Assembly (NCBI GenBank): GCA_943788175.1
Contig: CALSPG010000001.1
Location: 288,001 to 352,000, forward strand
Direction: 5' to 3'
Source: an uncultured bacterium
GTDB taxonomy: Bacteria > Fidelibacterota > Marinisomatia > Marinisomatales > UBA1611
DNA: 64,000 nt
Shown here piece after piece: positions 2,760-36,508 of this stretch. Positions within the stretch are counted from its first letter, which is position 1. Each line of letters starts with the position of its first letter. The notes beneath the pieces were generated by a model. The model was not told where the DNA came from and searched no databases. It saw nothing but the letters and a program-made list of their open reading frames with translations. The position numbers were made by a program, and so were the translations under genes.

Positions 2760-2799
2760 AGTCTGACACTAAAAGCATTATAAAATATTTCAAGTATAA

Positions 2800-10202: not shown

Positions 10203-10211
10203 ATAAAAGTA

Positions 10212-10376
10212 TTAATCATGTCCTCTTTCTGAAGGATCATTTACATCTTTGCTAAAAGCAGATTTTGAACCTGTCTTATTTGTAACTATTTTTTCTTCTA
10301 GCTTTTTAGATTGGCCATCATCTTCAGTTAGACTGGTACTTGAATAGTTGTTTTTATTTTTTTTTGTTAAAGGCAT
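10212..10376 (-). CDS. Small charged hypothetical protein (likely start MPLTKK at 10376)
   Basis: Part of track ORF 10212..10424; this ATG follows the probable cimA stop. Confidence 0.35.
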   Translation of the reverse strand: MPLTKKNKNNYSSTSLTEDDGQSKKLEEKIVTNKTGSKSAFSKDVNDPSERGHD

Positions 10377-10383
10377 ATCTTTA

Positions 10384-14032: not shown

Positions 14033-14035
14033 GTT

Positions 14036-15619
14036 CTACACGTTCACAGATTCTTCAATAAATAAAAGATATCTACTGTTTTTATCATTTTCATATTGGT
14101 TTAATGCGTCTAAATAAGCTTTAACACTTGCTTTGATTGTATCGGTTGATGTTCCCTTTGATATATATAAAGAGTCATTAATAAACAGTCTTATTATCAC
14201 TTCTCCGAATGCATCCTTTCCGCTGGTTATCGATCTAACCTTGTAATCATGAAGCTTAATATCATAATCAAGCTTTAAAGCTCTCTTGATAGCTTTAAAA
14301 CAGGCTGCTACAGGCCCATCACCTGTTGCAGATTCTTGTTCAATACTATCTGGTGTCTTTATGCGTACAGTAGCGGTGGGTATAGTATTAGTGCCATTAT
14401 TAACATGAAGGTAGTCCAGTTCGTATGAGTTATTTTTATTCACATTTCTATCGCCCATCAATATTCTAAGGTCATCATCGAATATTTCTTTTTTCTTATC
14501 CGCTAATTCTAAAAACTTAGAATAAACTTTATTCATCTCTTTATTAGTAAGCTCGTATCCTAATTCAGATAACCTAGATTGGATACCATGCCTACCAGAA
14601 TGACGACCAAGTATAATTTTACTTTTATTTAGACCTACAGACTCAGGAGTCATTATTTCATAAGTTTCTCTGTTTTTTAAAAATCCATCTTGATGTATAC
14701 CTGATTCATGAGCAAAAGCATTGTCACCAACAATGGCTTTATTTGCTTGAACAATCATACCAGTATGTTTAGAAACCATTTTACTGGTATTATAAATTTC
14801 TTTTGTGACTATATCTGTATCAAAGTCCCAATAATCATTTCTAACATTCAGACTCATGACTATTTCCTCGAGAGAGGCATTACCAGCGCGTTCACCTATG
14901 CCATTTATGGTACACTCAACCTGTCGCGCCCCTGATGATATCGCAGACAGAGAGTTTGCTACTGCCAACCCTAGATCATTATGACAATGAACACTAATAA
15001 TTGCCTTTCGAATATTTCTAACCTTCTTCTTTATTAATAATATTTTTTCACCAAATTCTAAAGGCATAGTGTATCCAGTCGTATCAGGTACATTAATTAC
15101 TGTCGCGCCAGCATCAATGACAGCCTCTATAATCTCGCACAAATAATTAATATCTGTTCTACCAGCGTCTTCAGGAGAAAACTCAACATCATCTGTTAAT
15201 GTTTTAGCATAGGTGACTGCATCAGCTGCCATTTTAATAACTGTTTCTCTTTTCTCGTTAAGATTTATACCGTATTTCGTATCTGAAAACTTTCCCATGA
15301 TATGAATATCAGAAGTGCCCGCAAATGTATGAATACGATAATTATTTGCATTCTTTAAGGCCTCATACGCTTTCTTTACATCTTTCGGAATTGACCTCGC
15401 TAGAGCGGCTATTATGGGACCATCTGTACTGCCTGATATTCTTTCTACAGCCTCAAACTGAGCTTTTGAAGAAACAGGAAAACCAGCTTCAATTACATCA
15501 ACATTTAATTTTGATAGTTGTTTTGCTATCTCGACTTTTTCTTCAATTTCAAGAGAAGAGCCAGGTGCTTGTTCTCCATCTCTAAGGGTAGTATCAAAAA
15601 TAACTATTTTATCGCTCAT
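14036..15619 (-). CDS. leuA: 2-isopropylmalate synthase
   Basis: DTTLRDGEQ, HCHNDLGLA, GIGERAGN, HESGIHQDG, regulatory domain GDGPV. Confidence 0.97.
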   Translation of the reverse strand: MSDKIVIFDTTLRDGEQAPGSSLEIEEKVEIAKQLSKLNVDVIEAGFPVSSKAQFEAVERISGSTDGPIIAALARSIPKDVKKAYEALKNANNYRIHTFAGTSDIHIMGKFSDTKYGINLNEKRETVIKMAADAVTYAKTLTDDVEFSPEDAGRTDINYLCEIIEAVIDAGATVINVPDTTGYTMPLEFGEKILLIKKKVRNIRKAIISVHCHNDLGLAVANSLSAISSGARQVECTINGIGERAGNASLEEIVMSLNVRNDYWDFDTDIVTKEIYNTSKMVSKHTGMIVQANKAIVGDNAFAHESGIHQDGFLKNRETYEIMTPESVGLNKSKIILGRHSGRHGIQSRLSELGYELTNKEMNKVYSKFLELADKKKEIFDDDLRILMGDRNVNKNNSYELDYLHVNNGTNTIPTATVRIKTPDSIEQESATGDGPVAACFKAIKRALKLDYDIKLHDYKVRSITSGKDAFGEVIIRLFINDSLYISKGTSTDTIKASVKAYLDALNQYENDKNSRYLLFIEESVNV

Positions 15620-15628
15620 TATGGTTCT

Positions 15629-16711
15629 CTAATCTTTGTTAGTTAAAAGTTTTCTATAGTTTTCTATTACCAGTTCTGTGAATTCAACAGTCGATAAATT
15701 TTTATTTTTATCGTTTACAATATCAGGAGTTCCATATCCTGCATCTAATGAATCACTAACCGCTTGATGAAGATTCGATTCTATAGTTTTTTCATTAAAT
15801 GAAATACCCATCATCATTGCAATAGACAGAATAGACGCTATAGGGTTCGCAATATTTTTACCCGCTAGGTCCGGAGCAGAACCATGAACTGGTTCATACA
15901 TAGAAAAATTATCACCAATACTTGCAGATGGTAGCATTCCTAAGCTTCCTGTAATCATAGCAGAGATATCACTCAAAATATCACCAAATAAATTTTGAGT
16001 GACAATTACATCAAACTGCTTAGGGTTATGAATAATCTGCATTGCAGCATTATCCACATACATATCAGATAACATTACGTCTGGATAATTTTTATGAACA
16101 TCATGTATAATATTTTGCCAAAATTGAGAGCTCTCTAATACATTTGATTTATGAACTGAGACTAAGTTTTTTGAACGACTTTGAGCCAGCTTGAATGATA
16201 CATGGGCGATTCGTTCAACTTCTTTTTTTGTATATTCTAATGTATTCCAGCCTCTATCCGCTTCTAAACCCCTAGGACTACCAAAATATATTCCGCCCGT
16301 TAATTCTCTTACAATCATAATATTCGTACCTTCAATTATATTAGGCTTTAAGCTAGATGAATGAACTAAAGCTTTAAAAATATTTGCCGGTCTTAAGTTC
16401 GAGAACAGAGAAAGTGATTTTCTTAATTTTAAGAGTGCTTGTTCAGGTTTCTTATCATGCTCTACATTGTCCCACTTGGGACCACCTACAGCACCCAAAA
16501 AAACAGAATCAGAAGACAGGCAAGCTTCTAGAGTGTCGTTCGTGAGAGGTGTATCATATAAATCAATAGATTTACCCCCAATTTCCTTTTCTATAATAGT
16601 AAATTCTAATTCACTGTGCCTTGAGACTTCTTTTAATACTTCTACAGCGGAAGTAGTTATTTCAGGTCCTATTCCGTCACCAGGAAGCGTTATTATGTTA
16701 TAATTTTTCAT
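15629..16711 (-). CDS. leuB: 3-isopropylmalate dehydrogenase
   Basis: LPGDGIGPE, GAVGGPKW, NLRP, RELTGGIYFG, EPVHGSAPD. Confidence 0.97.
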   Translation of the reverse strand: MKNYNIITLPGDGIGPEITTSAVEVLKEVSRHSELEFTIIEKEIGGKSIDLYDTPLTNDTLEACLSSDSVFLGAVGGPKWDNVEHDKKPEQALLKLRKSLSLFSNLRPANIFKALVHSSSLKPNIIEGTNIMIVRELTGGIYFGSPRGLEADRGWNTLEYTKKEVERIAHVSFKLAQSRSKNLVSVHKSNVLESSQFWQNIIHDVHKNYPDVMLSDMYVDNAAMQIIHNPKQFDVIVTQNLFGDILSDISAMITGSLGMLPSASIGDNFSMYEPVHGSAPDLAGKNIANPIASILSIAMMMGISFNEKTIESNLHQAVSDSLDAGYGTPDIVNDKNKNLSTVEFTELVIENYRKLLTNKD

Positions 16712-18810: not shown

Positions 18811-20307
18811 TTATTTTAAAAGAACCATTTTCATGGACTGTTGACTTTCATTTGTTGTTAGTCTAAAAAAGTAAAGCCCGGCAGAAACAGCATTTCCATT
18901 TCTATCAAGAGAATTCCACGCAAGAGTCTTGAATCCCGCAGTTTGATGTCTATTTAATAATGTTTTTACCAACTTTCCTTTAGCATCATATATTGAAACC
19001 TTAACAATACCATCAAATGGGAGTTCGTAATTAATTGCCGTAGAAGGATTAAATGGATTTGGATAATTTTGATGCAACATAAACTCTTTTGGTAAATAGT
19101 TGTTACTATGTGCATATAGCGATGAGTTTACTATTAATGTTTCGCTGTAAGGCCCTCTATTTCCTGCATGATCAAAAGCAGAAATTCTATAATAAACAGT
19201 TACACTTTCTAAATATTCTAAGTCTGAATGAAGGTTATTTGTTGTAACAATAGATTCATATTGGTCTGTCTCAAATAATGGGTCAGCAGATTTATCAATT
19301 TCATAATAGTTGAAATCACTATCAGATATGTGGTCCCAACGTAGTTGAACAGAATTTTGATTTAGAGTAAAGTTAAAATTTGCTGGAGTATTTGGTGCAA
19401 GATTATCTATTGAATAACCATATCCAACAATACTCACAGGGTTGATATCAATCTCATAGTTTTGTGCTATTACTCTAAAACCTGTCATTCCGTTGTGTTG
19501 ATCGGAAGAGTCTGATAAAGTCAGAGCTTCATAGTAGTATACCTTTTCCCCTAATCCTCCGAAAGATCCAAGATTTACCCAATTAGGATCATCAAACCGT
19601 TGAATAGTATAGCTATCTATACCATGGGGGTGAGCATCTACATCAATCATAGATCTATTAATTTCTAAATAAACGCGCCCACCTTGATCATCAGATATAT
19701 CTTGTATGCTTATAATATTAGGAGAAACATCTATGGGGCCTGATCTCCAATAAGAGACACCTCCGCCTCCGCCTCCACCATCGCCGTCTCCACCTCCTCC
19801 GGGCCAACCTGTGCCATTACCTGATGTCCAGCTAGTAAAATTAATATCATAGTATTTTTGGTCAGGTATTGAATAAAACGAACCGACCGTTCCAGGTAGA
19901 AATTTAGGAACGTAAATAATGTTAAATACACCGACTGCAAGATATTCACTTACATATGCAAAAGAAGGACGACCTCTCCATAGCGTATTAGACGGTGAAC
20001 CAGATATGTAGCTGTTTTCAGTAATTGGATTATATATAGCTTGGTTGTTTCCCCGCATGAGAGCAACATCATCTGAAATTATGTCCCAATTATCAGAATC
20101 GGTAGGGTCGGCATAATCTTCTTTCTGATAATAAACTGTCCCTTCATTGCAGAATGATATGGGTAATTCGTCACAGCAATTATCTTCGCCATACGCATAT
20201 TCCAACACATCAATACCTTGTCCGTTAATATGATTCTGATACATCTCAAGACACTGAGGATACGATAAAGAATTTATAATAAGTAATATTAGTAAAATTC
20301 TAAGCAT
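18811..20307 (-). CDS. Secreted protein with Gly-run domain, FN3-like domain and FlgD/T9SS-A-like CTD
   Basis: Signal peptide; DNLAPNTPANF...WD FN3-like; NYPNPFNP...KMVLLK. Confidence 0.8.
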   Translation of the reverse strand: MLRILLILLIINSLSYPQCLEMYQNHINGQGIDVLEYAYGEDNCCDELPISFCNEGTVYYQKEDYADPTDSDNWDIISDDVALMRGNNQAIYNPITENSYISGSPSNTLWRGRPSFAYVSEYLAVGVFNIIYVPKFLPGTVGSFYSIPDQKYYDINFTSWTSGNGTGWPGGGGDGDGGGGGGGVSYWRSGPIDVSPNIISIQDISDDQGGRVYLEINRSMIDVDAHPHGIDSYTIQRFDDPNWVNLGSFGGLGEKVYYYEALTLSDSSDQHNGMTGFRVIAQNYEIDINPVSIVGYGYSIDNLAPNTPANFNFTLNQNSVQLRWDHISDSDFNYYEIDKSADPLFETDQYESIVTTNNLHSDLEYLESVTVYYRISAFDHAGNRGPYSETLIVNSSLYAHSNNYLPKEFMLHQNYPNPFNPSTAINYELPFDGIVKVSIYDAKGKLVKTLLNRHQTAGFKTLAWNSLDRNGNAVSAGLYFFRLTTNESQQSMKMVLLK

Positions 20308-20639
20308 AAATGTTTTCTCATTTGAATTATAACGAATAAATATTCGATCAAAATGGACATAAAAGCAAATTACTAATGTAAATGCAATCGGTTCTTAACC
20401 GAGGTTAATAATTAAGCTCATTATAAAATGATAATGAAACCATATAAAGCAAAAATTATTTTTTTAAAAATATTAAGTAATCTTGATGACGCATTGTATT
20501 ATAATCAACATTTTAAGTTTTTAAAACTACGTTTCAATTATTATAATTAGATGTCTATTAGGGTGAGATAAAAAAATGGTTTTCTATAAATAAAAATATT
20601 AATGCTAGAAAATTGTTATTTTTTTTTTTAATTTTAGTT

Positions 20640-20723
20640 ATGTTTTTATTTCAACATATAATCAAATCTTCCTTCGTTTGGTGGCCATCCCGGCCATATA
20701 TATCCTTTAATTACGCTTCGTAG
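20640..20723 (+). promoter_or_regulatory. Putative Trp leader peptide (27 aa, tandem Trp codons)
   Basis: MFLFQHIIKSSFVWWPSRPYISFNYAS*, TGG TGG at 20679-20684, followed by hairpins, ending 74 nt before trpB2. Confidence 0.75.
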
Positions 20724-20797
20724 CGTACTACTCCAGTACATAAATTTTAAAAAACATTCGCATGCGAATTATTTTCGCCTGCTAAATAATAAGGAAT

Positions 20798-22153
20798 ATG
20801 ATGAATATTAAAACAACTTTAACAGAAGACAGTATCCCAGAAAATTACTATAATATAGCAGCAGACTTAAAAGAACCTCTATCTCCAGTTTTACATCCTG
20901 GAACAAAAGATCCAGTTGGGCCAGATGATCTATCTCCAATGTTCCCGATGGAGCTCATTGGGCAAGAAGTAAGTCAGGATAGATACATAACAATACCAGA
21001 TGAAATTCGAGATATATACCGATTATATCGTCCTACGCCTCTATATCGTGCAAGATCGTTAGAGAAGGCATTAGATACACCAGCAAAAATATACTATAAA
21101 TATGAAGGTGTTAGCCCAACTGGTAGCCATAAACCAAATACGGCGATCGCTCAAGCATATTATAATAAAAGAGAGGGTATTGAAAAGTTGACAACAGAAA
21201 CAGGTGCAGGTCAATGGGGATGCTCATTGGCATTTGCTTGCGCAAAGTTTGGAATAGATCTTGATGTTTTCATGGTAAAAGTAAGTTACAATCAAAAACC
21301 CTACAGAAGAGCAATGATGGAGGCTTACGGTGCAAACTGTATAGCCAGTCCCTCTAAGTATTCTGAAGTCGGTAGAGAGATATTAGCGAAAACTCCAGAT
21401 TCAACTGGGAGCTTAGGAATAGCTATTTCTGAAGCAGTTGAAAAATGTGTTACAGATTCAAATACAAAGTATGCTCTTGGTTCTGTTCTGAACCATGTTC
21501 TAACACATCAGACAATCATAGGACAGGAAGCAATGGAACAACTAGCAAGTATCGAAGAATATCCTGATACCATAGTTGGTTGTACTGGAGGTGGAAGTAA
21601 CTTTGCAGGTATTGCTTTTCCTTTCCTTGGTAAATCACTTAGAAATGATGAAAGTATTGAATTAAGGGCAATAGAACCTTCTGCATGTCCTAGTTTAACT
21701 AAAGGTAAGTTTGCTTATGATTTTGGAGATACAGGTGGAATGACTCCTCTAGTAAAGATGCATACACTTGGTTCAAACTTTATACCTTCTGGTTTTCATG
21801 CCGGTGGTTTGAGGTATCATGGAATGGCTCCTATTGTAAGTCATTTAGTTAATAACGGATATGTTAATCCAGAATCATATACGCAGTTAGATGTTTTCAA
21901 AGCCGGACTCTTATTTGCTAAGAATGAAGGTATTATCCCAGCTCCTGAGGCGAACCATGCTGTGAAGGGTGCTATAGAGGCGGCTTTAAGAGCTAAAGAA
22001 AGCGGTGAAAATAAAACGATTCTTTTTAACCTTTGTGGACATGGGAACTTTGATATGCAAGCTTATACAGATTACTTTGAGGGCAAGTTATTTGATCAGG
22101 AATATTCAGATGAAGAGATTGGTATGGCACTATCGGGACTTCCTTCCGTTTAA
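20798..22153 (+). CDS. trpB2: TrpB-like PLP enzyme (tryptophan synthase beta chain type 2)
   Basis: YKYEGVSPTGSHKPNTA, TETGAGQWG, GGGSNF, HAGGLRYHG, PAPE, LCGHG. Confidence 0.95.
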   Translation: MMNIKTTLTEDSIPENYYNIAADLKEPLSPVLHPGTKDPVGPDDLSPMFPMELIGQEVSQDRYITIPDEIRDIYRLYRPTPLYRARSLEKALDTPAKIYYKYEGVSPTGSHKPNTAIAQAYYNKREGIEKLTTETGAGQWGCSLAFACAKFGIDLDVFMVKVSYNQKPYRRAMMEAYGANCIASPSKYSEVGREILAKTPDSTGSLGIAISEAVEKCVTDSNTKYALGSVLNHVLTHQTIIGQEAMEQLASIEEYPDTIVGCTGGGSNFAGIAFPFLGKSLRNDESIELRAIEPSACPSLTKGKFAYDFGDTGGMTPLVKMHTLGSNFIPSGFHAGGLRYHGMAPIVSHLVNNGYVNPESYTQLDVFKAGLLFAKNEGIIPAPEANHAVKGAIEAALRAKESGENKTILFNLCGHGNFDMQAYTDYFEGKLFDQEYSDEEIGMALSGLPSV

Positions 22154-22175
22154 AAGTGATTATGATATAGCTAAT

Positions 22176-22221
22176 GAAGGAGGTAATTGTTTTTAAATAA
22201 AGGGCTTTGCCTCCTTCTTTT
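22176..22221 (+). terminator. Probable terminator after trpB2
   Basis: GAAGGAGGTAA (22176-22186) pairs with TTGCCTCCTTC (22207-22217), then TTTT. Confidence 0.55.
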
Positions 22222-22282
22222 GTAAATCGTCTTGAAACTATATCATTCTTTTAAAAAGAAATAATTGCTTTTTTATGAATTG

Positions 22283-24493
22283 CTATTTTAGCAATATCAT
22301 CTTTCTAGTTTCTCTAAAATCTCCTGCCTGAATCGTATAGATATACATTCCAGCAGCAACAGACTGACCTAAATTGTTGGTTGCATTCCATGTAACATGG
22401 TGATATCCAGCGCGTTGAATTTTTGATGACACTAGTGTACTTACTTTACGACCCATTACATCATAAATTGCTAAATAAACCATACCATCTGTAGGAAGCT
22501 CATATGATATAGACGTATTTGGATTAAAAGGATTAGGATACGCTGGATAAAGCGCAAATTTTCCAGGCAGGGTTTCTAAATTTGGGGTGGTTGACACTGT
22601 TGACACACGTGTCATCTTCCTCTCCATAGTCATATAAAAGCTATTGACGTTTTCCAATCCAGAAAGCATAGGTAATGGCATTGAGTCCGCCACCATTCGT
22701 ACGCAATCATCCATGCTACCATAATAGGCTGAATAATCTTCACATGGATATTCTTTAATACCAAGGATTAATGTATCAGCACTTTGTTGATAAAAATAAG
22801 AATCCCAATCACCTTCCTGGTAGTTGTAATCCTCAAAGTCAATTATATATAAAGAATCTGCGCTGGCATACCAATAAAAGTCTAAGGTATCAATCATTTC
22901 TTGGCCATCAATGTCCTCAAATGTGTTTATTTCATTTCCTGTCGAATCTTCAAAGAAATTCATATATGTAGGTTCTTCATTTTCCATTATATCTTCTAAA
23001 AACATTGAAGGAAGTTTTGTTTCAACACCAGCTAAGAGTTCAACCATTTTAGGGCCAATAGAACCATCTAAAGTAGCAACTACAGACCCGTTTGAATTAT
23101 AAAGGTTAAGGTAGTTAAATGTAACCATGTAATTATTTGTATCTACGCTTACATAATTAGAAAAATTATCCGCGTTCGATGAGAATATATCGGGTTCTTC
23201 ACCGAAAGGCGTAAGACCTTGCGCAAGCACTATTCCTTGATCTACGAAGACGGAAACCATGAAAGGATTATCTACTCCATCAATAGGAAATCCAAATATA
23301 AAAGCAAAAATATCATTAAAGTCAAAATTCATAATGATAAAATCAGGATCATCTGAGTCATCATTACCACTACCAGAACCACCAGCTAAATATTTTGCAG
23401 CGCATTGCCCATCACCATCTTCGCAATCCCAACAGACGCAAGTTTCATCGCCATTTTCAAATCCTATGTTACCATCATTATTAACATAAATTTGGTTCCA
23501 TCCTTCGCCATAAAAAACAAATTCTGATGACAATGCCTGGTATGAATAATCATCATCTTCTACTTCAATCTCATTTGAATACTCTCCTTCAAGATTGGAA
23601 ACAGTATCAGCACTAACAGAGTATTCAGAAAAATCATCATTTGGTATAAATGTTATCTTTTTATAGGCCATATCTAACTCATTTATTCCAGAAAAACCCT
23701 CAATTGGGACTAAAAAAGACTCGCCAGAAGATTCACTGAGATCTACGTTGGTAAATTCCCCATTACCATCTCCAATTCCTATGGCCAAACCGCCAGCAGC
23801 ATCAGCAACATTTGCGCCAGTTAAAAAGAGATCTTGGTAAGTAATTACTATCTTATTCGTACCATAAAAAAGCTGAATTTGAAATGTGTTTAATGCATCT
23901 GAATTATCATATAAAGGAACATCAATGAACGTAATATTTGCAGTTGTATCAGTTTCATCAAAATATATACTGCCACTAGTAGGATCTAAATCAGTTAAAT
24001 AGGCGCCAATTCGAGGTCCATAAGTATAGTCATCTTCATCGATATCGCGATTTTCTTCATCTCCTTCATCCCCTAGATTCATAAGGTCTCCATAAACTAA
24101 ATAAAATAGTTCAGTATCGTATTCACTATTAATAACACTAATACCTCCATTGGCAGTATCCATTCCCATTAAAGAAAGCATATTTGGAATATTTTGATTT
24201 GTTCCTACCGTTACAAATGTGCCAACTTCGGCAGGATCCATTTTCCATTGGCCAACTAAATTGTCCATATCCATAATAAAATTAGAACGCTCGCTTGAAT
24301 TAGATTGCGATCTAAATCTTTTTAAATCCTCAGGTGCATAAATGTTGTATTTATGTTGAAGCTTCTTTAGGTAATTATTTGTTTTATTCTGGAAGCCTTC
24401 GGCAGCAAAACATAATGAAAGAGAAAAAATAAATAAAATTGTTCTTTTCATAATTAAGACTCCTTGTAGTTTTTTAACTAATTGATAAGACAT
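22283..24493 (-). CDS. Acidic secreted protein with nidogen-like segments and FlgD/T9SS-A-like CTD (likely start MKRTIL at 24451)
   Basis: Signal peptide MKRTILFIFSLSLCFA; FVFYG...IYVNNDGNIGF and NTFQIQL motifs; AYPNPFNP...KMILLK. Confidence 0.78.
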   Translation of the reverse strand: MSYQLVKKLQGVLIMKRTILFIFSLSLCFAAEGFQNKTNNYLKKLQHKYNIYAPEDLKRFRSQSNSSERSNFIMDMDNLVGQWKMDPAEVGTFVTVGTNQNIPNMLSLMGMDTANGGISVINSEYDTELFYLVYGDLMNLGDEGDEENRDIDEDDYTYGPRIGAYLTDLDPTSGSIYFDETDTTANITFIDVPLYDNSDALNTFQIQLFYGTNKIVITYQDLFLTGANVADAAGGLAIGIGDGNGEFTNVDLSESSGESFLVPIEGFSGINELDMAYKKITFIPNDDFSEYSVSADTVSNLEGEYSNEIEVEDDDYSYQALSSEFVFYGEGWNQIYVNNDGNIGFENGDETCVCWDCEDGDGQCAAKYLAGGSGSGNDDSDDPDFIIMNFDFNDIFAFIFGFPIDGVDNPFMVSVFVDQGIVLAQGLTPFGEEPDIFSSNADNFSNYVSVDTNNYMVTFNYLNLYNSNGSVVATLDGSIGPKMVELLAGVETKLPSMFLEDIMENEEPTYMNFFEDSTGNEINTFEDIDGQEMIDTLDFYWYASADSLYIIDFEDYNYQEGDWDSYFYQQSADTLILGIKEYPCEDYSAYYGSMDDCVRMVADSMPLPMLSGLENVNSFYMTMERKMTRVSTVSTTPNLETLPGKFALYPAYPNPFNPNTSISYELPTDGMVYLAIYDVMGRKVSTLVSSKIQRAGYHHVTWNATNNLGQSVAAGMYIYTIQAGDFRETRKMILLK

Positions 24494-24655
24494 TTAAAAT
24501 TAGGGATATAGTATAGATTTATTATAATAATTATTGAGTTTATTTTTCGACATATAGAGCTAAAAGAATTACTAATAAACTTTATCAAACGGCTGAGAAA
24601 AGCTAGTGTGGTGCTCATAAAATAAAGTAGAGAACTATAAAAACCAGTATATATA

Positions 24656-24771
24656 AAACTATGAAATTTAGGTATAAAGCAAAAAACCCCACTAAAAGTG
24701 AGGTTTCTCGTCGCGTACCCGGGGCCGGACTCGAACCGGCACGGTATTGCTACCAACGGATTTTAAGTCCG
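24656..24771 (-). repeat. att-like direct repeat copy A: 3' part of tRNA-Leu plus terminator
   Basis: 116 bp matching 26053..26168 with 3 mismatches; identity stops at the 5' arm of the anticodon stem. Confidence 0.92.
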
Positions 24772-24796
24772 CTTACGAGATTGTCGTGAAAGGCAC

Positions 24797-24819
24797 TTTT
24801 TGTACAACACTGTACAACA
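24797..24819. repeat. TGTACAACA box pair (left end)
   Basis: Copies at 24801 and 24811 (10-bp period); 24797-24811 is a perfect 15-bp inverted repeat of 25983-25997. Confidence 0.85.
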
Positions 24820-24908
24820 AATTACGAGGTTAGTTCTCTCATCACCACCTGGCATGAGAAGTGCCATATGAAATTTTCTTAAGCGCAAAATGATTTTTAT
24901 AAATGATA

Positions 24909-25870
24909 TTACCATGATATAACAACTAGTCCGTTGCCTTCTCTACCTGTCATAGTGTACCTCCATCTGGGTCTGGCATAGTATGCGTTTCCTGCTATAC
25001 TCTGATCCGCATTAGATACTCCTCCAACATAACCTGAACCGCCGCCGCCACCGCCACCATCAGCATCCACCAGCCGCCACCACCATAATAGCCACCTCCT
25101 CCTGCGCCACCATCCAGCAGATTACCTCTAGTAGCTGTTTGATTTCCTCCTAGTGCCAAGTGAACCTGCCTTCTTGAATCACAACCGTCACTGTTGCATA
25201 CCAACTGCGCACCACCTGCTGATTGCGTCCCACCACCGCCACCAGTTCCCGATACCATTGCTCCTCCTAGGGTCACCATTACCGCCAGTTAATGCTTCCA
25301 CCTCCATAGCCTCCATGCAATGCATAAGAAATGTATCCAAGCACTTCCACCGCCTCCACCGGAGCTACAATGACTACGATTTGTGAAAGCATTACCTCCA
25401 ACTGGAACGAACATCAGCTTGCGCCTCCACCGGACTTCCAGCATATGCACTCAGTTTTAGTATGATCCTCCACCATTGAATCCTCCGTTAACCATAGTAC
25501 AAGACCATCCAGATGATTTCCTACATCTGATCCGGATGAATCGCCTTGTCCTCCTACATAGACATAGAGAAGGGTTTCTCCTTGATGTTACGTTTAAAGT
25601 CTCCAGTTGCGTATGCCTCCTTTGCCTGCACCCCAACTACGAATAACTAGTTACATTACCTCCTCTGCCCACCCCATAGCCTTAATTGTAATTGTGCTTA
25701 CACCAGACGGTACGGTAAAAGTTTGTTGTGAGCCAGTGTAGCTAAAAGTCTGGGAACCTGATGAGCTAACTGATGTGTGTGGCTTATGTGCGCCATGAAA
25801 TGATGGCAATGCTATTTGAGCATTTATAAAATTTAATAATAGCAATTAGATAAATATAAATTTTCACATA
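24909..25870 (-). pseudogene. Secreted glycine-rich domain protein (TFSYTG...GGGG type), many indels; start approximate
   Basis: Fragments QTFSYTGSQQTFTVPSGVSTITIKA, GGGGGTQSAGG, GAGGGGYYGGGG, C-terminal EGNGLVVISW* (stop 24909-24911). Confidence 0.7.
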
Positions 25871-25982
25871 TGAAATTATAAAAGAATAGTTTCGTAATAC
25901 GATATTAGTTTCAATTTTTGAGCAACGTGCAACAAACAACCAAGTACATGATTCACTTACTAGCATTATTTCAAATAACTAA

Positions 25983-26023
25983 AGTGTTGTACAAAAAAAT
26001 ACATGTACAACATTGTACAACAC
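25983..26023. repeat. TGTACAACA boxes (right end): one inverted, two direct
   Basis: Inverted copy TGTTGTACA at 25985-25993; direct copies at 26004 and 26014. Confidence 0.85.
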
Positions 26024-26052
26024 TTATATTCCATAATATGCCATAATATGCC

Positions 26053-26168
26053 AAACTATGAAATTTAGCTATATAGCAAAAAACCCCACTAAAAGTGAGG
26101 TTTCTCGTCGTGTACCCGGGGCCGGACTCGAACCGGCACGGTATTGCTACCAACGGATTTTAAGTCCG
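26053..26168 (-). repeat. att-like direct repeat copy B (overlaps intact tRNA-Leu and its terminator)
   Basis: Matches 24656..24771; includes the hairpin AAACCTCACT-TTT-AGTGGGGTTT followed by TTT on the minus strand. Confidence 0.92.
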
Positions 26169-26196
26169 TAGTGTCTACCAATTCCACCACCCAGGC
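26113..26196 (-). tRNA. tRNA-Leu(TAA)
   Basis: GCCTGGGTGGTGGAATTGGTAGACAC...CGGACT-TAA-AATCCG...long variable arm...GGTTCGAGTCC...CCCGGGTA. Confidence 0.95.
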
Positions 26197-26219
26197 AATA
26201 AAATTTCAAAAACATAATG

Positions 26220-26293
26220 AGGCGTCGGCCGGATTCGAACCGGCGAATAACGGTTTTGCAAACCGGTCCCTTAAACCACTTGGGTACGACGCC
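26220..26293 (-). tRNA. tRNA-Cys(GCA)
   Basis: GGCGTCGTACCCAAGTGG...GGTTT-GCA-AAACCG...GGTTCGAATCC...GACGCCT, U discriminator; one anticodon-stem mismatch. Confidence 0.9.
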
Positions 26294-26380
26294 ATTGATA
26301 TAATAAAACTTACATAGTTTTTTTAAGACAACAATCTAACTTTTTATAAAATTATGCTCTCATACGCAATAAATTAACAT

Positions 26381-26611
26381 ATGGATTATAAAAGAATAAC
26401 CATGTATAACAGACTAAGAGATTATTTTATACCAGCAGCTGTACTAGATGAAATATTCCAAAGTCATAAAGATATTACAACGCTTGAAAACGCATACGAT
26501 TCTTTGATTCAAGATGGATTCAGTGAAGATGGTGCTGCAGAGAAAATTGCTAAATTAGTATTTGAAGAGACTGGTATTGAGCCAGATTACGGCATAGATG
26601 AGGAAGAATAA
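26381..26611 (+). CDS. Small acidic hypothetical protein
   Basis: 76-aa ORF with protein-like composition. Confidence 0.65.
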   Translation: MDYKRITMYNRLRDYFIPAAVLDEIFQSHKDITTLENAYDSLIQDGFSEDGAAEKIAKLVFEETGIEPDYGIDEEE

Positions 26612-26943
26612 AAATAATTAAACTGATAATTTTTACTTATCGGTTGTTCTATTTGGTATTCTGTGCCTTTATTCACATTTAATACTAAACTATCTAGAAG
26701 TGGATAGTTTTTCTCTACTAATGTTTCAGTATTTATTTTTCCAAGACTATCCAAAACCATATTACAAACTCTAACTGCCCTATTTCTAGTGTATCCCTCT
26801 TTAGTATCTTGCCATATTATTGGATTAATATCCATCTTGCTTTTAAGCAGTAGCATTTGGTGGTAGACAATAGAGTCAATAGCTATTGGTTCTGCCGAGT
26901 TGGAAAGAGAAAAACCAAGCAAAAGGCATAAGAAACTTCTCAT
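26587..26943 (-). CDS. Hypothetical exported protein (likely start MRSFLCLLLG)
   Basis: Signal-peptide-like start overlaps the stop of the upstream ORF (ATGA coupling). Confidence 0.55.
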   Translation of the reverse strand: MRSFLCLLLGFSLSNSAEPIAIDSIVYHQMLLLKSKMDINPIIWQDTKEGYTRNRAVRVCNMVLDSLGKINTETLVEKNYPLLDSLVLNVNKGTEYQIEQPISKNYQFNYFYSSSSMP

Positions 26944-27278
26944 TTTACTACAGTAACTAAACCTACGAAAAAATAAAATATTATTGCTGTGACGCACATA
27001 CCGTAAGTTGAAGTCCAACTTGACATAAACTTTGACTGCTCGAAATCTCTATTGTATTCATTAATTTGAATCTGGTCAATTAGTGTCTCACCGCCTTTTT
27101 CTCTACATAATTTTGAAGCTTTAAAATATCGAGGAAGATCCTTTACAGGTAGGGCTTTAACTCCAAACTTTCTTGCAAAAGTAACAGTTCGGTCGGAGCA
27201 AGGATTATTTACATTAAGATTATCTTGAGAATAAATTATAGAGAAACAAATAATAAAGCTGCGTACTATATATTTCAT
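26940..27278 (-). CDS. Hypothetical protein with signal peptide and C-terminal TM helix
   Basis: 112 aa, ATGA overlaps with both neighbours. Confidence 0.65.
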   Translation of the reverse strand: MKYIVRSFIICFSIIYSQDNLNVNNPCSDRTVTFARKFGVKALPVKDLPRYFKASKLCREKGGETLIDQIQINEYNRDFEQSKFMSSWTSTYGMCVTAIIFYFFVGLVTVVK

Positions 27279-28016
27279 TTTAATGCATAAACAACTTTAA
27301 AAGTAAAAATAGGAATTTCATCAATTTTCATCTCCGGTCCTTTTACAGTTTTCCCCTGAAAACGCCACTTGTTCTTTTTATAGTTATTATTCAAAAAACC
27401 CATTTTAATATCAATTCCAATCCACGGCCTTATGTAGTATCGATATCCGAGCATCCCCGAAAAGCCTAGCCAATCTGTTACCATCGTATTTTCAGAAGCA
27501 ACCTGACTCAATGGGCTCTCATCTCCAAAACTATTTAATAATTCATTCCAATCATCTGTGATTGTGTTAACGCCGCTACCATCTGAACTCGAAGGCTTTG
27601 TTTCAAGAATGAGTCTAGACCGACCCCATATTGGAGTCAATGTAAAATTCAATTCAACTTTTGGTTTAAGTCTGAAGAAAGTTTCCAGCGGAATCATTCT
27701 ATAATTTATGGTACGATAGAAAACAGGCTTACTAGTTGCAAACCCTTCTAATCTTCCAATATCAATTGATTTAAGAACATTATAACCAACCCTAGCATTA
27801 TGAAAGAATTCATAATAAACACTAAAATTAATTAGCAAATTCCTTGTGAGTATATTTCCAGTAGGAAAAGATACTAACTCATTACTGTCAAAACCTTCCA
27901 TGGTAGGTTCATAGAAGCCTGTACCAAAATCAATACTAATTTTTGGCTGACTATATAGTGATACCACTAAAAAGTAGCAATGGAATACTTTTAAACTGTA
28001 AAATTTGACTCTTCAT
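27275..28016 (-). CDS. Putative outer-membrane beta-barrel-like protein (one indel near the start)
   Basis: Alternating aromatic strands (GMLGYRYY, FTFKVVY); ATG at 28016 is out of frame with the track ORF by one base. Confidence 0.55.
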
Positions 28017-28039
28017 TAGACTATCGTAATTTACACCAC

Positions 28040-28860
28040 ATGAAACGATTACTAGAAATATTCTTATTTTTATTCGCAGTGCTTTATGGCGATAGTTTAG
28101 ATACGGATGTAAGTCATGTCATTATTGATCACAAGGGAAACTCTATTATCGCCATTGTTGACTCTATTGATCTTGATAATGTTTATTACAAACTTAAAAG
28201 CAATAATGAACCAGGAAAGATGGATATCAATAAAGTGTATTACATCTATAATGATTTTGATAGGATATTTCATTATGACTGGAGTTACTATGAGAATTTG
28301 AGAAGGATCACAAATAGAACAGGGAAAATAGTCACCTTGAAAAATGATAGTATAGAATTTAAAAATATCGAATTTACTTCGAATAGAATTTATCCAGAGA
28401 TTTTAGTGCATGGAACAAATGATACCTCATTTTATATGAAATCTTTAGATGTTTATAAAATTGAGACTGACTATTCTGTGCTTCATTATGCAGCTAAACG
28501 TGGTTTTTGGTATAGTTTCTCAGCATTTATATTATCTCTGCTGCTATTGATACTCGACTTAAATGGGATGATTCGAGACGATTTTCTCCTCAGGTGTGGG
28601 ATCAATACAATGATTTATTACCATCTGTAAAGTTTATGAACTTAAAACCAACTGGTGTAACGTTTGCTTCAGTATCATATTTAATACCAATGTCTGTTCT
28701 AGCATCGATGTTTTGGGATATTTATAAAGATAAACGTTCTTTTTATTTTCATCCGCTAGAAAAAGAGACACCATATCCGCGAACAATGTATGTATTTTCA
28801 CCTAAGCATCTAATGCAAGCTTTTGTAAAAAAAGTCATTAGTACGAATCGAAAGAAGTAA
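28040..28860 (+). CDS. Hypothetical membrane-associated protein, frameshifted
   Basis: Track ORFs 28040..28630 and 28594..28860 overlap and appear to be one gene. Confidence 0.55.
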
Positions 28861-28917
28861 TATTGGTAATTATATTATTTCAAATATTAGAAAAAGAGTG
28901 AATAAGAAGTAAGAAAC

Positions 28918-30800
28918 ATGTACAGTATAGTTAAGATTTATCGCCATTTTGTTTTTCTTCTAATAATTGTGTTTTTTTCTTGTGTGGATAAAGATCCTAC
29001 ATTAATACAGCTTCCTGATACAACTGCTCCCACTGGGTATATTGTAAGCCCGTTAAATGGTAGTTCGGTTTCTGGTAATACATCGCTTCAAATTATAGCG
29101 ATTGACAATGAAGAGGTCGATACTGTTTTTTTCATGATTAAAGGACAAAACGATAACAGCTACCGTAATATCGATTCTACTACCAATGTCTCAAATGATA
29201 TTTGGCAAGGTAGTTGGGATACAAGGAATGTGCAATGGGTCGAAAATGAAAATTATTTTATAACATTCAAAGCCATAGAATCTAGTTGGCAACTCTTATA
29301 TTGCTTCGCCGATAATCGTAAAACTTGACAATCAAGATGATGAGTCCCCCAACGGATATATTAAGAATCCTATCACAGGTCAAACTGTAAATGGCATTGT
29401 TTCAATTGAAGTTGAAGCAACGGATAATAAAGCGATACAGTATGTAAGTATTTTTGTAAATAATGAAATTAAAATAACCCATTTAACCGAACCTTTTAAT
29501 TATGATTGGAATACTGAGTTAGTCACAGATGATCTTGTTTATTCTATTTACGCAGTGATTGTAGATATCGATAATAACAGAACAACAATACCACCAATTA
29601 GTGTAACCGTTAATAATAACCTTCCTATAGATGTAGCTCCTCCTACTGGTGCATTAACTAGTCCACCAGCAGGTTCTGTAGTTTTTGGTAATACTGCTAT
29701 ACAGGTTACGGCTGCTGATGATCAACTTTTAGATTATATTGAATTTTATATTGATGGAAACCTTAATGGATCCTTTGATTGTAAACGGACCTAATTGCAC
29801 TGCCTCATATGACTGGGACACTTTAATAGAAACCGAAGGAGAACATACTATTCAAGCTATTTTAGTTGATGGCTGGAATAACAAAACAGTTTTAACCCCA
29901 GTAACTGTAATTGTTAATAATATAGATCAGGATGACATACATCCTACCTCGACTATAATCTCTCCTGCATCTGGCGCATTAGTTTCCGGGCAAGTAATAA
30001 TTGAAACTTTAATTAGTGACAACACGGGTATTGATAAAGTTGATTTTTTTATAAATAATGTATTTGTACACGTAGATAGTAGCGGACCAGATTATACATA
30101 TATTTGGGATACAGATACTGTTCCAGATGATGAAGATTATATTTTAGGTATTATAGCATATGATTTAATTGGAAATGAAGGTCCTAGTACGCCAATCACA
30201 GTCCATTTAGATAATGATGATAACGTATTACCAAATGGAACAATAACGTACCCATATGCTGGACAAGTTGTTTCTGGCATTGAGCAAATTTCCGTTTATG
30301 CTGTTGATAATGCAGAAATCGATTCAGTATCTCTTTACATTGATAACGTATTGGTTTTTTCTGATACTAGTGAGCCGTATGAATATGATTGGAATACAAA
30401 TTTTGAGATTGAAGATGTGAACCATATAATAGGATCAATTATTACAGATGCTTCAGGAAATCATTTTGAAGTTCCTTCAATAAGTGTTTTTGTAAATAAT
30501 ATTCCAAATGATTCTAATCCCCCAACAATAATTATTTCTAGCCCTCTTGATGGTCAAACTGTTTCAGGTGTCGTTAATTTTGCCGCACATGTAGATGATG
30601 ATACAGGAATAGCTAGTGTGGAGTTTTTTATTGATGGCTTTTCTGTAAAAACAGATTCTGAAACACCGTACTCTTTTTCTTGGGACACGACTATCAATAT
30701 TGGTGTACATGGCAATGAACACGCACTATCTGCTATCGTTGTTGACTTGGCAGGAAACACAACTTTTTCTCAACCAATTTTAGTTACAGTAGACAATTAA
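28918..30800 (+). CDS. Lipoprotein with six bacterial Ig-like (Big) repeats, frameshifted
   Basis: Lipobox FFSC; six repeats DxxxPxxxIxxPxxGxxVSG...V.F.I....Y.W.T. Confidence 0.8.
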
Positions 30801-30801
30801 A

Positions 30802-33388
30802 ATGATTCTTCGTTTAAAATATTATATAATCATTCTTATTGTACTTTTAAGTTGTGAAGGTCCATTTTTTGAAATTCCTCCTGAACCTGACACAACGGCT
30901 CCTTTAGTTGAAATCACTAATCCCGCTGATCAAGGAGTGCTGTCTGATTCTGTTTTAGTTACTATTTACGCTTCTGATAATGATGCGATTAAAACCGTGC
31001 AATTATATATAAATGATTCCTTAGTCTTGATTCAGCAGAAGCCCCTTATCAGTATTTTTGGAACACCTTAGATTATACTGAAGATCAATTTCATAATCTG
31101 CGTGCAAGGGCAGTTGATTTTGCTAATAATGATAATCAAACTAGTCCAGTCCGAGTAATTGTGGATAATAATGATAATATTAAACCAACTGGATCCCTGC
31201 TCTACCCATTTAGCGGTCAAACGCTTAATGGTGTAATAACTATAATTGCTGATGCTGCTGATAATGATTCATTATCTTCCGTTGTTTTTTTTATAAATGG
31301 TGATTCAGTAGGAGTAAAAACAGCGGCTCCATTTTCTTACGATTGGAATACTTCTCTTGAGTTTGATGACTACTCATATGTCATATCGCTCAAAGTAAAT
31401 GATGCCAGTGGTAATTATATACTCTTGGGCCGATAAGCGTTACGGTTGATAATGAAGAGAATATTCAAGTTGATACTACGCCACCTACAGGTACAATAGT
31501 CTACCCCCCTATGGCGGCAACTGTTTCTGGAACTATAATTATTCAAATAGATGCTTTCGATAATGAAGAAGTGAGTAAAGTAGAGTTAACCATAGATGGA
31601 ACCAATCCGATTATTGATGATAGCTCGCCTTATGAATTTACTTGGAACACCAACGATGCAAGTGAAGATAATAATCATTTCATTGCTGCAACTGCTACAG
31701 ATAGTAGCGGAAATACAACAAATCTAATGCCAGTAACTGTTTTTGTAGATAATGAAGAAAATATAATAGATGATAATATTCCACCATCAGTAGTAATAAC
31801 AAGTCCTGCAGCGAATCAGACTGTCAGCGGTTCAATTCTAGTGACAGCAGCTGCATTTGATAATATTGGAATTTCTAGAGTTGAGTTTTATCGAAACTCA
31901 ACTATTTATGAAAGTGATGCTAACTACCCTTATGAAGTCTCTTGGAATACCCTGTTGGATGACGAGGAAAGTTCGCATACCTGGTTTGCGAAAGCATTCG
32001 ATACAAGCAATTTAATTAGCCAAAGCCCCTCCATTGTCGTAAGTGTGGATAATGAAGATAATATATTACCGAATGGCTTTATTGCTCAGCCTTACGCCGG
32101 GCAGCAAGTTAGTGGAGAAGTAGAAATTTTAATCTCGGCTGCAGATAATGTTTCTGTTAGTTCTGTCGCTATTTATATTAATGGAGAATCTGTAGTATCG
32201 ATTAGTCAATCTCCTTATTCTTATTTATGGAACACTACAGTAGGTGAAGTAAATGAAGATGCTGAATATATTATATTCGCAAGGATTAACGATTCTAATG
32301 ATAACTTCTACAATACACAACCAATCGCCGTTATTGTAAATAATGACACGGAGTTTGTAGATATAATACCACCCGTGATATCAATATTATCTCCCATATC
32401 CGGCGCCACTGTAAGTGATTCAACTCAAATCCGTATTTATGCTGATGATAATACTGCAATACAGAATGTTATAATTACCATTGATGACACACTAGAATTT
32501 ACTTTAGTTGATAGTCCTTATATAGCACTCTGGAACACGTATACGTACCCTAACGGGTCTCAACATACTATTAGCGCGGTGGCAACTGATAGCAGCAATA
32601 ATGAAACAACCAGTCAATCAATTATTGTGAACGTTGATAATTTTTATACTGAAATAATTTCTCTAATTAATCTTGCGCAACAAGTAGGTGCTATTTCACT
32701 ATCTTGGGATTCACCCCTAGGAGCTGATACCTATAATATTTTTAGGGATAACGAATTTATTCTATCTACATCAGAGACGTCTTTCACGGATACAAGTATT
32801 ACGCCTGGAACAATTTACTGTTATCAAATTTCAGCTGTCAATGGTCAGAATATTTCCGGACCTTTATCTGATTCTGAATGTGGAAAAGCATTATTATCAC
32901 CACCAAGTAATTTTAGCGGATCTGCTCTTCAAGACAGTATAACTCTTACTTGGTCAAACAATGAATATGCTGGACAATATAGGCTATATCGAGATGGTAG
33001 TGCTATATATACAGGAACTGACCTAACGTACATTGATAATGAGCTAGAATATAATAATAGTTACAGTTACACAATTTCATGCCTAGATGATATTGGTTTT
33101 GAAGGTCCTCAAACAAATCCAATAATGGTTTCAACCCACATTCAGCTTTTCGCTCCAGAACTATCTTTAGCTGTCGATTCTATTACTTTTGAACTTAATT
33201 GGAGTAGCGTATTTAGTGCTACTTCCTATAAAGTTTACGTTAATAACTCTTTTATAATAGAAACTGATACAACATCATATAGTTATAATGGTTTAAGCGG
33301 AGAAGAAAAATGCTTTAGAGTAAATGCCGTAAATGAATTTGGAACTATAAGTCCCAATTCGAATCAAGAATGCGCTACTCCAGACTAA
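30802..33388 (+). CDS. Lipoprotein with six Ig-like repeats plus three FN3-like domains, frameshifted
   Basis: Lipobox LLSC; same repeat motif; LSWD...YNIFRD...YCYQISAVN FN3-like units. Confidence 0.8.
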
Positions 33389-35071: not shown

Positions 35072-36508
35072 TCAACCTTGAAAATTCCAAATATATGTTC
35101 CAACGCTTCCAGCTGTTAGGCTAGAATGAATGCTTTTATCATTTGAATTAATATTGAAATTAATTTCTTTGTCACTATCGTTTAATACAATTACCACTAT
35201 TTTATTTTCTTTTGTGAGGAATGCTACATTAGGTAAATAAGAGATATTAGATGAATTTATACGTTTTGAACCTGGAGGTACAAATTTAGAAACATGCGCT
35301 ATCGCATAATATGCTGTATTTCTTTTTACGTTATTATTAGTAACAGTCACAGCACCTAAACAGTTCCTGCAACCACCTTTTGTATGCGGGTTTTGGTCTT
35401 CATCTGAAGCTAGGTTCCATTCTATTACTGTTTTGCACCAATTCCTAGATGCGCCAATTATTATATTTCTGATATGCCAACGCAAATCACCATACAGATC
35501 GCTAGGAAACCCAACCCACTGTTCAGTAAAATATAAATTTTTATCCGGGTGTGCATCTTTTAGCTCACTTAGGTTATTTATATCTCCACCATATAAATGA
35601 AATGCTGTTCCATCAACAAATTTTCGAGCAACAGCATCATTTAGAATACTAATTGGATAGTTTATATTATCTGCATTATGATCATAAATAATAATTTTCG
35701 TAGAAATATTATTATTTAAAAATGCTGGTCCTAAATGATCTTTTACAAAATTTAATTGTTCTATTGAAGACATGTGCATACTTGGATTATTTCCGTCATG
35801 AAGTGGCTCGTTTTGTACAGTAATGGCATCTATTAGAATATCTTTTTCTGCCATTAGTGTAATATATTTAACAAAGTATTTTGAATACGCTTCGTAAAAC
35901 TCAAGTAGCAGACTCCCACCCTTTGTTTTCATATTACTTTTCATCCATGTTGGAGCAGACCAAGGAGTGGCCATAATTTTTATATTTGGGGAGATAGCTA
36001 AGATTTCTTTTAGTATAGGAATTAAATATCTTTCATCTTGCTTTAAGCTAAACTTTTTCATTTCAATATCAACTTCACCTATTGGAAGATCATTATAAGA
36101 AAAAGGGAACTCGTCAAGATCAGATGCTCCAACACTTATCCGCAAGTAAGACACTCTAATACTTTGATCGTCTTGACCAAAAAGCTCTTCAAGTAAATTT
36201 TTTCTGCTATTAGAGCTCATTTTATAAAGATTTAGTGCACTTCCCCCGTTCAATGAAAAGCCAAACCCATCCATGCTTTGAAAAGGTTGATCAATATTGA
36301 CATCAATATTATTTATAAGACTTATTTTATTTTTCCCAGTATCAACACCTGTACTTTGCTTCGAAAATATTATCGATTTATTTTGATCACTTAACCAGAA
36401 ATCAACTATCGATAACTTTGATTTTTTAGTATAAGGGCTTTTATTGTCCTGCCTACAACCAGTAAACAAAAAAATTGCAGAACTTAAGAGAATAAGTAAA
36501 TAACTCAT
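35072..36508 (-). CDS. GH30 glycoside hydrolase lipoprotein (beta-1,6-glucanase/glucosylceramidase-like)
   Basis: GFGFSL, RISVGASD, TPWSAPTWMK, TVQNEP (acid/base), YFTEQW (nucleophile), EWNLA. Confidence 0.9.
   Translation of the reverse strand: MSYLLILLSSAIFLFTGCRQDNKSPYTKKSKLSIVDFWLSDQNKSIIFSKQSTGVDTGKNKISLINNIDVNIDQPFQSMDGFGFSLNGGSALNLYKMSSNSRKNLLEELFGQDDQSIRVSYLRISVGASDLDEFPFSYNDLPIGEVDIEMKKFSLKQDERYLIPILKEILAISPNIKIMATPWSAPTWMKSNMKTKGGSLLLEFYEAYSKYFVKYITLMAEKDILIDAITVQNEPLHDGNNPSMHMSSIEQLNFVKDHLGPAFLNNNISTKIIIYDHNADNINYPISILNDAVARKFVDGTAFHLYGGDINNLSELKDAHPDKNLYFTEQWVGFPSDLYGDLRWHIRNIIIGASRNWCKTVIEWNLASDEDQNPHTKGGCRNCLGAVTVTNNNVKRNTAYYAIAHVSKFVPPGSKRINSSNISYLPNVAFLTKENKIVVIVLNDSDKEINFNINSNDKSIHSSLTAGSVGTYIWNFQG

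Follow-up and report, generated by a model that had tools for sequence, protein, structure and literature searches.

How does a single gene come to lie between two copies of the same tRNA end, and can it still be moved? This question is raised by a locus beside the tRNA-Leu(TAA) gene of an uncultured SAR406 bacterium (Fidelibacterota; Marinisomatales), which we examined within a 64,000-nt stretch of contig CALSPG010000001.1 (assembly GCA_943788175.1, positions 288,001 to 352,000), referred to here as the window and numbered from its first letter. A direct repeat derived from the tRNA-Leu gene encloses 1269 nt of DNA that hold one minus-strand gene for a glycine-rich protein. An initial reading of the window, made from the sequence only, had proposed a non-autonomous single-gene cassette mobilised in trans, possibly a swap-in slot for surface proteins, or else the remnant of a larger island. 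Our analysis suggests that the insert is probably a non-autonomous relic of a tRNA-integrating element, similar to the cis-mobilizable elements (CIMEs), whose contents have been replaced between lineages.

A tRNA-Leu-derived repeat encloses one gene

A repeat search over the whole window recovered a direct-repeat family at 24644-24771 and 26041-26168 (minus strand), whose copies are 128 nt long, 94% identical and spaced by 1397 nt; this pair is the sole repeat of at least 30 nt with more than 80% identity in the 64-kb window. The 116-bp core previously described with three mismatches (24656-24771 and 26053-26168) is indeed identical at 113 of 116 positions and can be extended to the full 128 nt, and for a 44-nt core pattern the window has two occurrences, where 0.00 are expected in shuffles. 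ARAGORN called an intact tRNA-Leu(TAA) at 26112-26196 and, directly upstream of it and outside the repeat, a tRNA-Cys(GCA) at 26219-26293, both on the minus strand; Rfam concurs with both calls and scores tRNA-Leu at 55.3 bits. The first repeated base is the second on the 5' side of the anticodon stem (tRNA position 29), and the repeat spans tRNA positions 29-85 (57 nt, 57/57 identical) followed by about 70 nt of downstream sequence. The right copy completes the tRNA, while the left copy consists of an orphan tRNA-Leu 3' fragment with its downstream sequence, and ARAGORN found no tRNA there. An intrinsic-terminator hairpin with a U-run follows tRNA-Leu within the right copy (26077-26107, minus strand), and an identical hairpin in the left copy (24680-24710, minus strand) is placed to terminate the cargo transcript. 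Both fold alike at -17.1 kcal/mol (z -4.6 and -4.0), with none of 200 shuffles folding as well in either case. The repeat runs from the anticodon stem through the terminator as first described.

Campbell-type integration into a tRNA gene produces an anatomy of this kind. Passages of PMC1635311 report that integrases insert at the anticodon loop, at the T loop or at the 3' end of tRNA genes, and that the elements carry the 3' part of their target, with blocks of identity of up to 121 bp. Here, the repeat starts in the anticodon stem, its inner edge takes in the whole anticodon stem-loop, and the insert is flanked by a direct repeat of the tRNA 3' part with an intact tRNA kept at one end. The attL/attR-like duplication that had been proposed is borne out: its start is in the anticodon stem, it restores a complete tRNA, and the 3' part that was displaced lies distally. 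In the model that we favour, a circular DNA carrying tRNA-Leu positions 29-85 and some 70-85 nt of downstream sequence would have recombined, most likely via a tyrosine integrase, at the anticodon stem-loop of the tRNA gene on the chromosome. The element-borne copy would be the right one, which now completes the tRNA, and the original 3' end and its terminator would have been pushed 1.4 kb away to the left copy, where they would terminate the cargo transcript.

The Pfam scan covered 62 window ORFs (61 of the 62 chosen open reading frames of at least 70 aa, plus the open-ended ORF at 1-792) and identified no member of an integrase, recombinase or transposase family, in agreement with the sequence-only reading. 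The 1269-nt insert itself holds no integrase gene, only the glycine-rich gene; lacking a recombinase of its own, the element has no means of moving unaided. In addition, a blastn search with positions 24600-26200 against phages and plasmids matched only tRNA-Leu genes and nothing from the insert, and Rfam at its gathering threshold returned only the two tRNAs over 20000-30000. The 44-nt attachment (att) core was found in only three contigs from two metagenome-assembled genomes (MAGs) when 185,579 species-representative genomes were scanned, with no integrase beside it in any of the three.

Phased motifs lie inside both repeat copies

A short motif, TGTACAACA (TGTTGTACA on the tRNA strand), occurs five times in the window compared to 0.41 times expected, with all five copies inside the insert and none of 100 shuffles reaching this number. 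Two direct TGTTGTACA copies phased by 10 nt lie 19 nt inside the right repeat copy (26004-26022, minus strand), and a third, inverted copy follows 10 nt further in (25985-25993, plus strand), overlapping the first hexamer (-35) of a promoter-like site of the cargo gene. A second pair of direct copies, again phased by 10 nt, lies 29 nt inside the left repeat copy (24801-24819, minus strand). This layout may represent arm-type recombinase-binding sites, which the phased pairs resemble. A protein-database search for spurious ORFs reading through the tRNA fragment into the motif gave no candidate.

A related genome holds the same slot with different contents

Two contigs of one MAG, L003 and L001, together match the window with 89.1% identity over 13,047 aligned bases and overlap each other exactly by 141 nt inside the cargo gene. 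This relative has both repeat copies, with a junction identical to the window's, in the order tRNA-Cys, tRNA-Leu, terminator, motif group, conserved upstream region and gene, followed by the motif pair, 28 conserved bases, the orphan tRNA fragment and an orthologous gene for a protein with a sorting domain of the type IX secretion system (T9SS). Because a separately assembled MAG shows the same structure, the duplication is real and common to a second species. An assembly artefact, a concern raised with the first description, could draw on the frame-breaking indels in the cargo region and in several other window genes, which make parts of this assembly doubtful. However, the independent MAG holds both copies with distinct flanks, on contigs joined by the exact 141-nt overlap, and the two window copies differ at three of 116 positions and have different outer flanks; we therefore rejected this explanation of the repeat as almost certainly wrong.

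Within the shared frame, conserved and diverged parts alternate. The orphan tRNA part is identical in window and relative (57/57), as are the backbone that joins it to the motif pair (24772-24799, minus strand; 28/28) and a short backbone stretch after the gene (24829-24850, minus strand; 19/19 aligned bases). The non-coding region upstream of the cargo gene (25869-25982, minus strand) is 89.5% identical (0.895), with a perfect run at 25930-25978, and the leader-coding part of the gene reaches 0.805. In contrast, identity falls to 0.59 and 0.67 in the two motif regions, and the gene body (from about 25700 to 24850 in the window) could not be aligned with the relative's although its flanks could. 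All five motif copies of the relative read TTAGTACA or TTAGTTACA, at the same places and with the same spacing as in the window, and TGTTGTACA is absent from all three comparison loci (L001-L003). The five motif copies and the gene body change in concert between the two species, and a swap of the slot's contents for those of a related cassette would account for this change most simply. Such replacement would have taken place by recombination in the conserved flanks, either homologous or site-specific with an integrase supplied in trans. The earlier idea of a swap-in slot thus gains comparative support, with the same slot and junctions, and a different gene body and motifs, in a species diverged by about 11%.

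The ends of the two alleles differ as well. The window allele stops at 24909, and about 60 nt (24851-24908) separate this stop from the conserved segment TGGTGATGAGAGAACTAACCTC. In the relative, this segment contains the stop codon, which indicates that the alleles join the shared backbone at different points. On the other side of the insert, a 10-nt unit, GGCATATTAT, is tandemly repeated between the terminator and the right motif group, with about 2.5 units in the window (26031-26054) and three in the relative (L003 10112-10141). The left copy of the relative also has one unit, at its outer end (L001 about 305-321), and the original duplicated block was for this reason probably about 140 nt long. 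We also considered a conserved RNA structure at the right motif group: the window's hairpin there has a z-score of -2.8 (2 of 200 shuffles as good), but that of the relative, with z -1.0, folds much like its shuffles (35/200), and the candidate was rejected.

A more distant MAG, about 72% identical (L002), has tRNA-Cys, tRNA-Leu and the same terminator, followed by a PhoX gene and then asnB, and blastn-short found no second att copy in it. The comparison with relatives that had been called for has two sides: the close relative keeps the same arrangement, and the 72% relative is without the insert, although it is not a clean empty site. As the close relative carries the same arrangement, the insertion may be old and now an immobile relic. 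When the outer flank of each repeat copy was compared with the tRNA-downstream flank of L002 over 140 ungapped nucleotides, the left copy matched at 118 positions and the right copy at 111. A flank slightly closer to that of L002 is what the model would predict if the left copy is the original 3' end that was displaced. We attempted to date the insertion by asking whether repeat copies group by side, and abandoned this approach, as the within-genome identities between left and right copies (113/116 in the window, 107/116 in the relative) and those between orthologous copies (112 and 109 of 116) are all similar, and in any case left copies come from the host and right ones from the element. Finally, blastn-short detected no degenerate att copies or backbone pieces beyond the two copies in the window or in L001-L003; there is therefore no tandem array, and the tandem cassettes once envisaged are not borne out in these sequences.

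The cargo gene belongs to a glycine-rich family in which some members share a leader

The cargo gene (24909-25867, minus strand) encodes a putative secreted protein of about 300 aa with an ALK/LTK-type glycine-rich domain (PF12810). We infer that it starts with GTG at 25867; gene callers on relatives begin at the ATG equivalent to 25966. As expected from its glycine codons, the insert has a higher G+C content than its surroundings (44.5% compared to about 33%). The relative's gene is intact and encodes 288 aa when read from the GTG, or 321 aa when the ATG upstream of it is taken as the start; its product matches PF12810 with E 5.4e-25 (89.2 bits, cut-off 24.5). The closest intact database allele among the matches listed, P0073, does so with E 5.8e-31 (108.8 bits, cut-off 24.5). 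The nine ORF pieces of the window's own gene gave nothing meaningful in Pfam because they are too short. A single gene is bracketed by the repeat, as first described, but it is not open in the window, where it is broken into at least five ORF pieces.

An AlphaFold (AF2) model built from 43 sequences (pLDDT 90.7) shows an N-terminal helix at residues 2-18, a disordered linker and a compact domain; from its sequence, the helix may be read as a signal peptide. Foldseek matched the model to the TG/GRD structures of LTK and ALK (E 7e-8 to 2e-5, TM about 0.4), and a sequence search of the PDB with the relative's protein gave no matches. The surface location suggested for the protein is supported in so far as its leader resembles a signal peptide, but it has no T9SS sorting domain. 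In this it differs from many bacterial homologues, including many of Bacteroidota, which combine PF12810 with the T9SS sorting domain PF18962 (for example P0004, P0008 and P0010-P0012), whereas the cassette alleles are listed with PF12810 only. With bacterial and phage members the cargo protein shares the PF12810 match and a fold like that of the LTK/ALK TG domain and of phage virion proteins. To our knowledge, no function is known for any bacterial member of PF12810.

In the family search, 8000 candidates were scored and 2339 passed. Among the 120 matches listed, 30 share the leader motif and 13 the LPSFH form of it that characterises this genus, and these 13 are all full-length, stand-alone proteins of 288-325 aa. 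Their first 45 mature residues have a median identity of 96%, compared to a median of 62% and a minimum of 43% for the remainder, which indicates a set of alleles that have a leader in common but differ in their bodies.

The nature of this protein also bears on whether the insert could be the stump of a prophage, that is, a glycine-rich gene of tail-fibre type left beside a temperate-phage att site after the rest of the phage was deleted. Among the predicted viral structures of BFVD, the fold resembles glycine-rich virion and fibre proteins from phages, marine ones included, with virion structural and short-tail-fibre proteins among them (E 2e-15 to 1e-8, TM no higher than 0.68). Matches to PHROG families of unknown function have E-values from 1e-28 to 1e-20, and weaker PDB matches include the Bxb1 tail tip and the fibre of cyanophage Pam3. 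However, the protein has a hydrophobic N-terminal leader and the gene its own upstream region, the 13 same-leader proteins among the matches listed all stand alone, and no other phage gene is present. Moreover, the DNA searches of phages and plasmids matched only tRNA genes, and a tblastn search with P0073 against 50,697 phage records gave no match, although its low-complexity filter may hide glycine-rich ones. A prophage stump is, on this evidence, very improbable.

Relic, active cassette or homologous exchange

If exchange at the slot were still under way, the locus would belong to an active miniature cassette system, in which units of about 1.4 kb excise as circles and an integrase encoded elsewhere inserts them at tRNA-Leu(TAA). 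The arm motifs of each cassette type would fit its own integrase, and the tRNA would anchor an integron-like swap slot. Consistent with this, both att copies and both motif pairs are intact, the motif copies and gene body change together, and 13 same-leader alleles are present in public data among the matches listed. Furthermore, the perfect run of 89 nt at 24715-24803 is the longest between window and relative outside the tRNA genes; as an 83-nt perfect run also exists in a coding region, it is suggestive only. For seven of the 13 clusters among the matches listed, the longest contig is only 1.0-1.5 kb, close to the 1269 nt of the unique part, but short contigs are usual in these data sets and this argument is weak. 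Against present activity, the insert of the close relative occupies the same site and has identical junctions, L002 is no clean empty site, no integrase was found among the 62 window ORFs, and the att core is confined to the three contigs from two MAGs, none of which has it beside an integrase. We consider an active system unlikely.

Alternatively, no site-specific recombinase may ever have been involved. A small circular or linear DNA that was homologous to the tRNA 3' region over about 130 nt could have entered by RecA-dependent recombination, with the repeat and the leader then serving as homology arms for allelic replacement under diversifying selection, and with the motifs being regulatory. 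The extension of homology for 70-85 nt beyond the tRNA into host-type terminator sequence would agree with this, as would the overlap of one motif copy with the promoter-like site and the gradual fall in identity to the relative from 25980 towards the variable body, as seen near recombination breakpoints. On the other hand, the inner edge of the repeat lies exactly at the anticodon stem, an integrase sublocation known from passages of PMC1635311, and the phased motif pairs are symmetrical inside both att copies, with one of them also 3' of the gene, where an operator would be unexpected. We regard a history entirely without a site-specific recombinase as improbable.

A CIME-like relic of a tRNA-integrating element, with contents replaced between lineages, is the probable explanation, and several observations weigh against it. 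No attP junction or excised circle was seen in the assembled sequences compared, and integrase involvement is deduced from the anatomy of the repeat. The identity runs 70-85 nt past the tRNA into host-like sequence, L002 having the same terminator; a site-specific system needs no such extension, and RecA-mediated Campbell integration suits it equally. The slot and its junctions are common to species diverged by about 11% and absent from the 72%-identity relative; because the sole close relative found shares the arrangement, the slot may have been passed on vertically and be immobile, and in L002 the genes downstream differ, which leaves it short of a clean empty site. Conserved stretches lie between the three diverged patches (both motif regions and the gene body); for a whole cassette to have been replaced at once, these stretches would have to be conserved across the types of cassette, a point that two sequences are too few to demonstrate. 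A regulator might instead use the motifs as operator sites, given that one copy overlaps the promoter-like -35. Finally, the left/right and the orthologous identities are about equal, and nothing dates the event.

Frame breaks in the cargo gene and elsewhere in the window

A frameshift-tolerant alignment of the window DNA to P0073 recovered 264 of 322 residues as identical, with 14 one-base insertions, three one-base deletions and no in-frame stop; against P0103 and P0023 we counted 14 to 17 insertions, three deletions and no stops. None of the 17 indel contexts contains a homopolymer run, and a homopolymer origin of the frameshifts was accordingly rejected. Local consensus error in the assembly seems more likely than decay of the gene, as insertions are many, nonsense changes are lacking and the distribution is patchy. 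Such errors are likeliest where strains differ or where repeats confuse the assembly.

Other window genes are broken too. Compared to L003, the window has seven frame-changing indels, at 27967, 28539, 28833, 29281, 29786, 31026 and 31421; those at 28539-31421 are of one or two bases, and three genes for Big_7 Ig-like surface proteins (27967-33388) are affected. L003 has three intact ORFs here, of 289, 629 and 862 aa, and the window has eight pieces (ORFs at 28040-28630, 28594-28860, 28918-29328, 29555-29794, 29739-30800, 30802-31071, 31161-31436 and 31511-33388). Likewise fragmented are a gene for an ABC-type ATPase (8593-8886, 9107-9325 and 9548-10006) and a second LeuA/HMGL-like gene (10212-10424, 10622-11071 and 11405-11998), which adjoin an intact leuA-leuCD-leuB cluster (12012-16711). 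The fragments at 8593-11998 are either pseudogenes or the outcome of consensus errors of the sort proposed for the cargo gene.

Gene content around the slot

All three genomes differ in the genes that they carry between tRNA-Leu and asnB, which indicates that tRNA-Leu lies at the edge of a variable island. In the window, this region encodes a TrpB-like PALP enzyme and two T9SS-sorted proteins (18811-24493), L001 has an adenylate/guanylate cyclase-TPR protein (2747-4270) after the T9SS gene, and L002 has only a PhoX phosphatase with a twin-arginine translocation (TAT) signal (10149-11456). Many genes of the wider window carry T9SS sorting domains. The host's PheS shares 98% identity with a protein recorded under 'Candidatus Marinimicrobia bacterium', in keeping with a Marinimicrobia (SAR406) host. 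Glycan-degrading genes are located at 2800-8390 and 35072-36508, namely GH18, GH81-CBM6 and GH30, with T9SS-type C-terminal domains in the GH18 and GH81-CBM6 proteins. The presence of these genes suggests a polysaccharide-degrading lifestyle for this SAR406 lineage.

Relation to known systems and significance

Inserts that are flanked by tRNA sequence and have no integrase are of a known kind. CIMEs are defined, in passages of PMC5704250, as elements that keep attL and attR and have no recombination genes; those of the streptococcal ICE (integrative and conjugative element) and IME (integrative and mobilizable element) systems are described there as persisting and as moving only with help. The SAR406 insert is similarly flanked by attL and attR and without integration and transfer genes. 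Unlike CIMEs, which are decayed ICEs or IMEs and usually several kb long, it measures 1.27 kb, has one gene and no known parent; its host is a free-living marine bacterium, and its contents differ between species within the same att frame.

Parts of a study of Prochlorococcus (10.1101/2020.12.28.424599) describe integrase-less, degenerate remnants with partial tRNAs in marine genomic islands. As in these tycheposon remnants, a partial tRNA copy here would mark a former integration beside an island-seeding tRNA, and here too the gene content from tRNA-Leu to asnB varies, across three genomes. The tycheposon hallmarks given there, a tyrosine or large serine recombinase with a replication module, are absent from the insert; in addition, the phylum is different, there is one partial tRNA rather than an array, and the attachment repeat is about 116-140 nt long, compared to the roughly 40 nt reported as typical of tycheposons. 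What is unusual at the SAR406 locus is the single-gene size, the host lineage and the apparent swap of gene body and motifs within a conserved att frame. A narrow search of the tycheposon, CIME and Marinimicrobia-island literature found no description of this locus, which is no proof that none has been published.

Integron cassettes are non-autonomous, single-gene units of about 1 kb, each bounded by a recombination site; a tyrosine recombinase whose gene lies outside the cassette exchanges them at a fixed slot. The likeness of the SAR406 insert to them is functional only: it shows no imperfect palindrome of the attC type and no attI or intI nearby, its flanks are tRNA-derived direct repeats, its site is a tRNA gene, and it has its own upstream region. 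That SAR406 bacteria possess an integron-like slot anchored on a tRNA, where units of about 1.4 kb, each composed of the tRNA-Leu att site, 10-nt-phased arm motifs specific to the cassette and a hypervariable gene for a glycine-rich secreted protein, pass between cells through an integrase encoded elsewhere, is a speculative and rather unlikely proposal.

If the slot is only a fixed relic, it is the ordinary scar of an old integration, although it would still help to mark a recombination hotspot and to alert users of this assembly to frame errors. If the integron-like proposal were true, the motif variants TGTTGTACA and TTAGTACA would mark cassette families with matching recombinase specificity, and an exposed protein would turn over rapidly in a streamlined ocean lineage poor in mobile elements. 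Recognisable mobile elements are scarce in abundant, streamlined ocean lineages such as SAR406, whose islands are nevertheless highly variable, and a slot that keeps its frame while gene and motifs are replaced between species would be a testable route for that variability. Such a slot would target the bacterial ALK/LTK-type glycine-rich family, which is shared with phage fibres.

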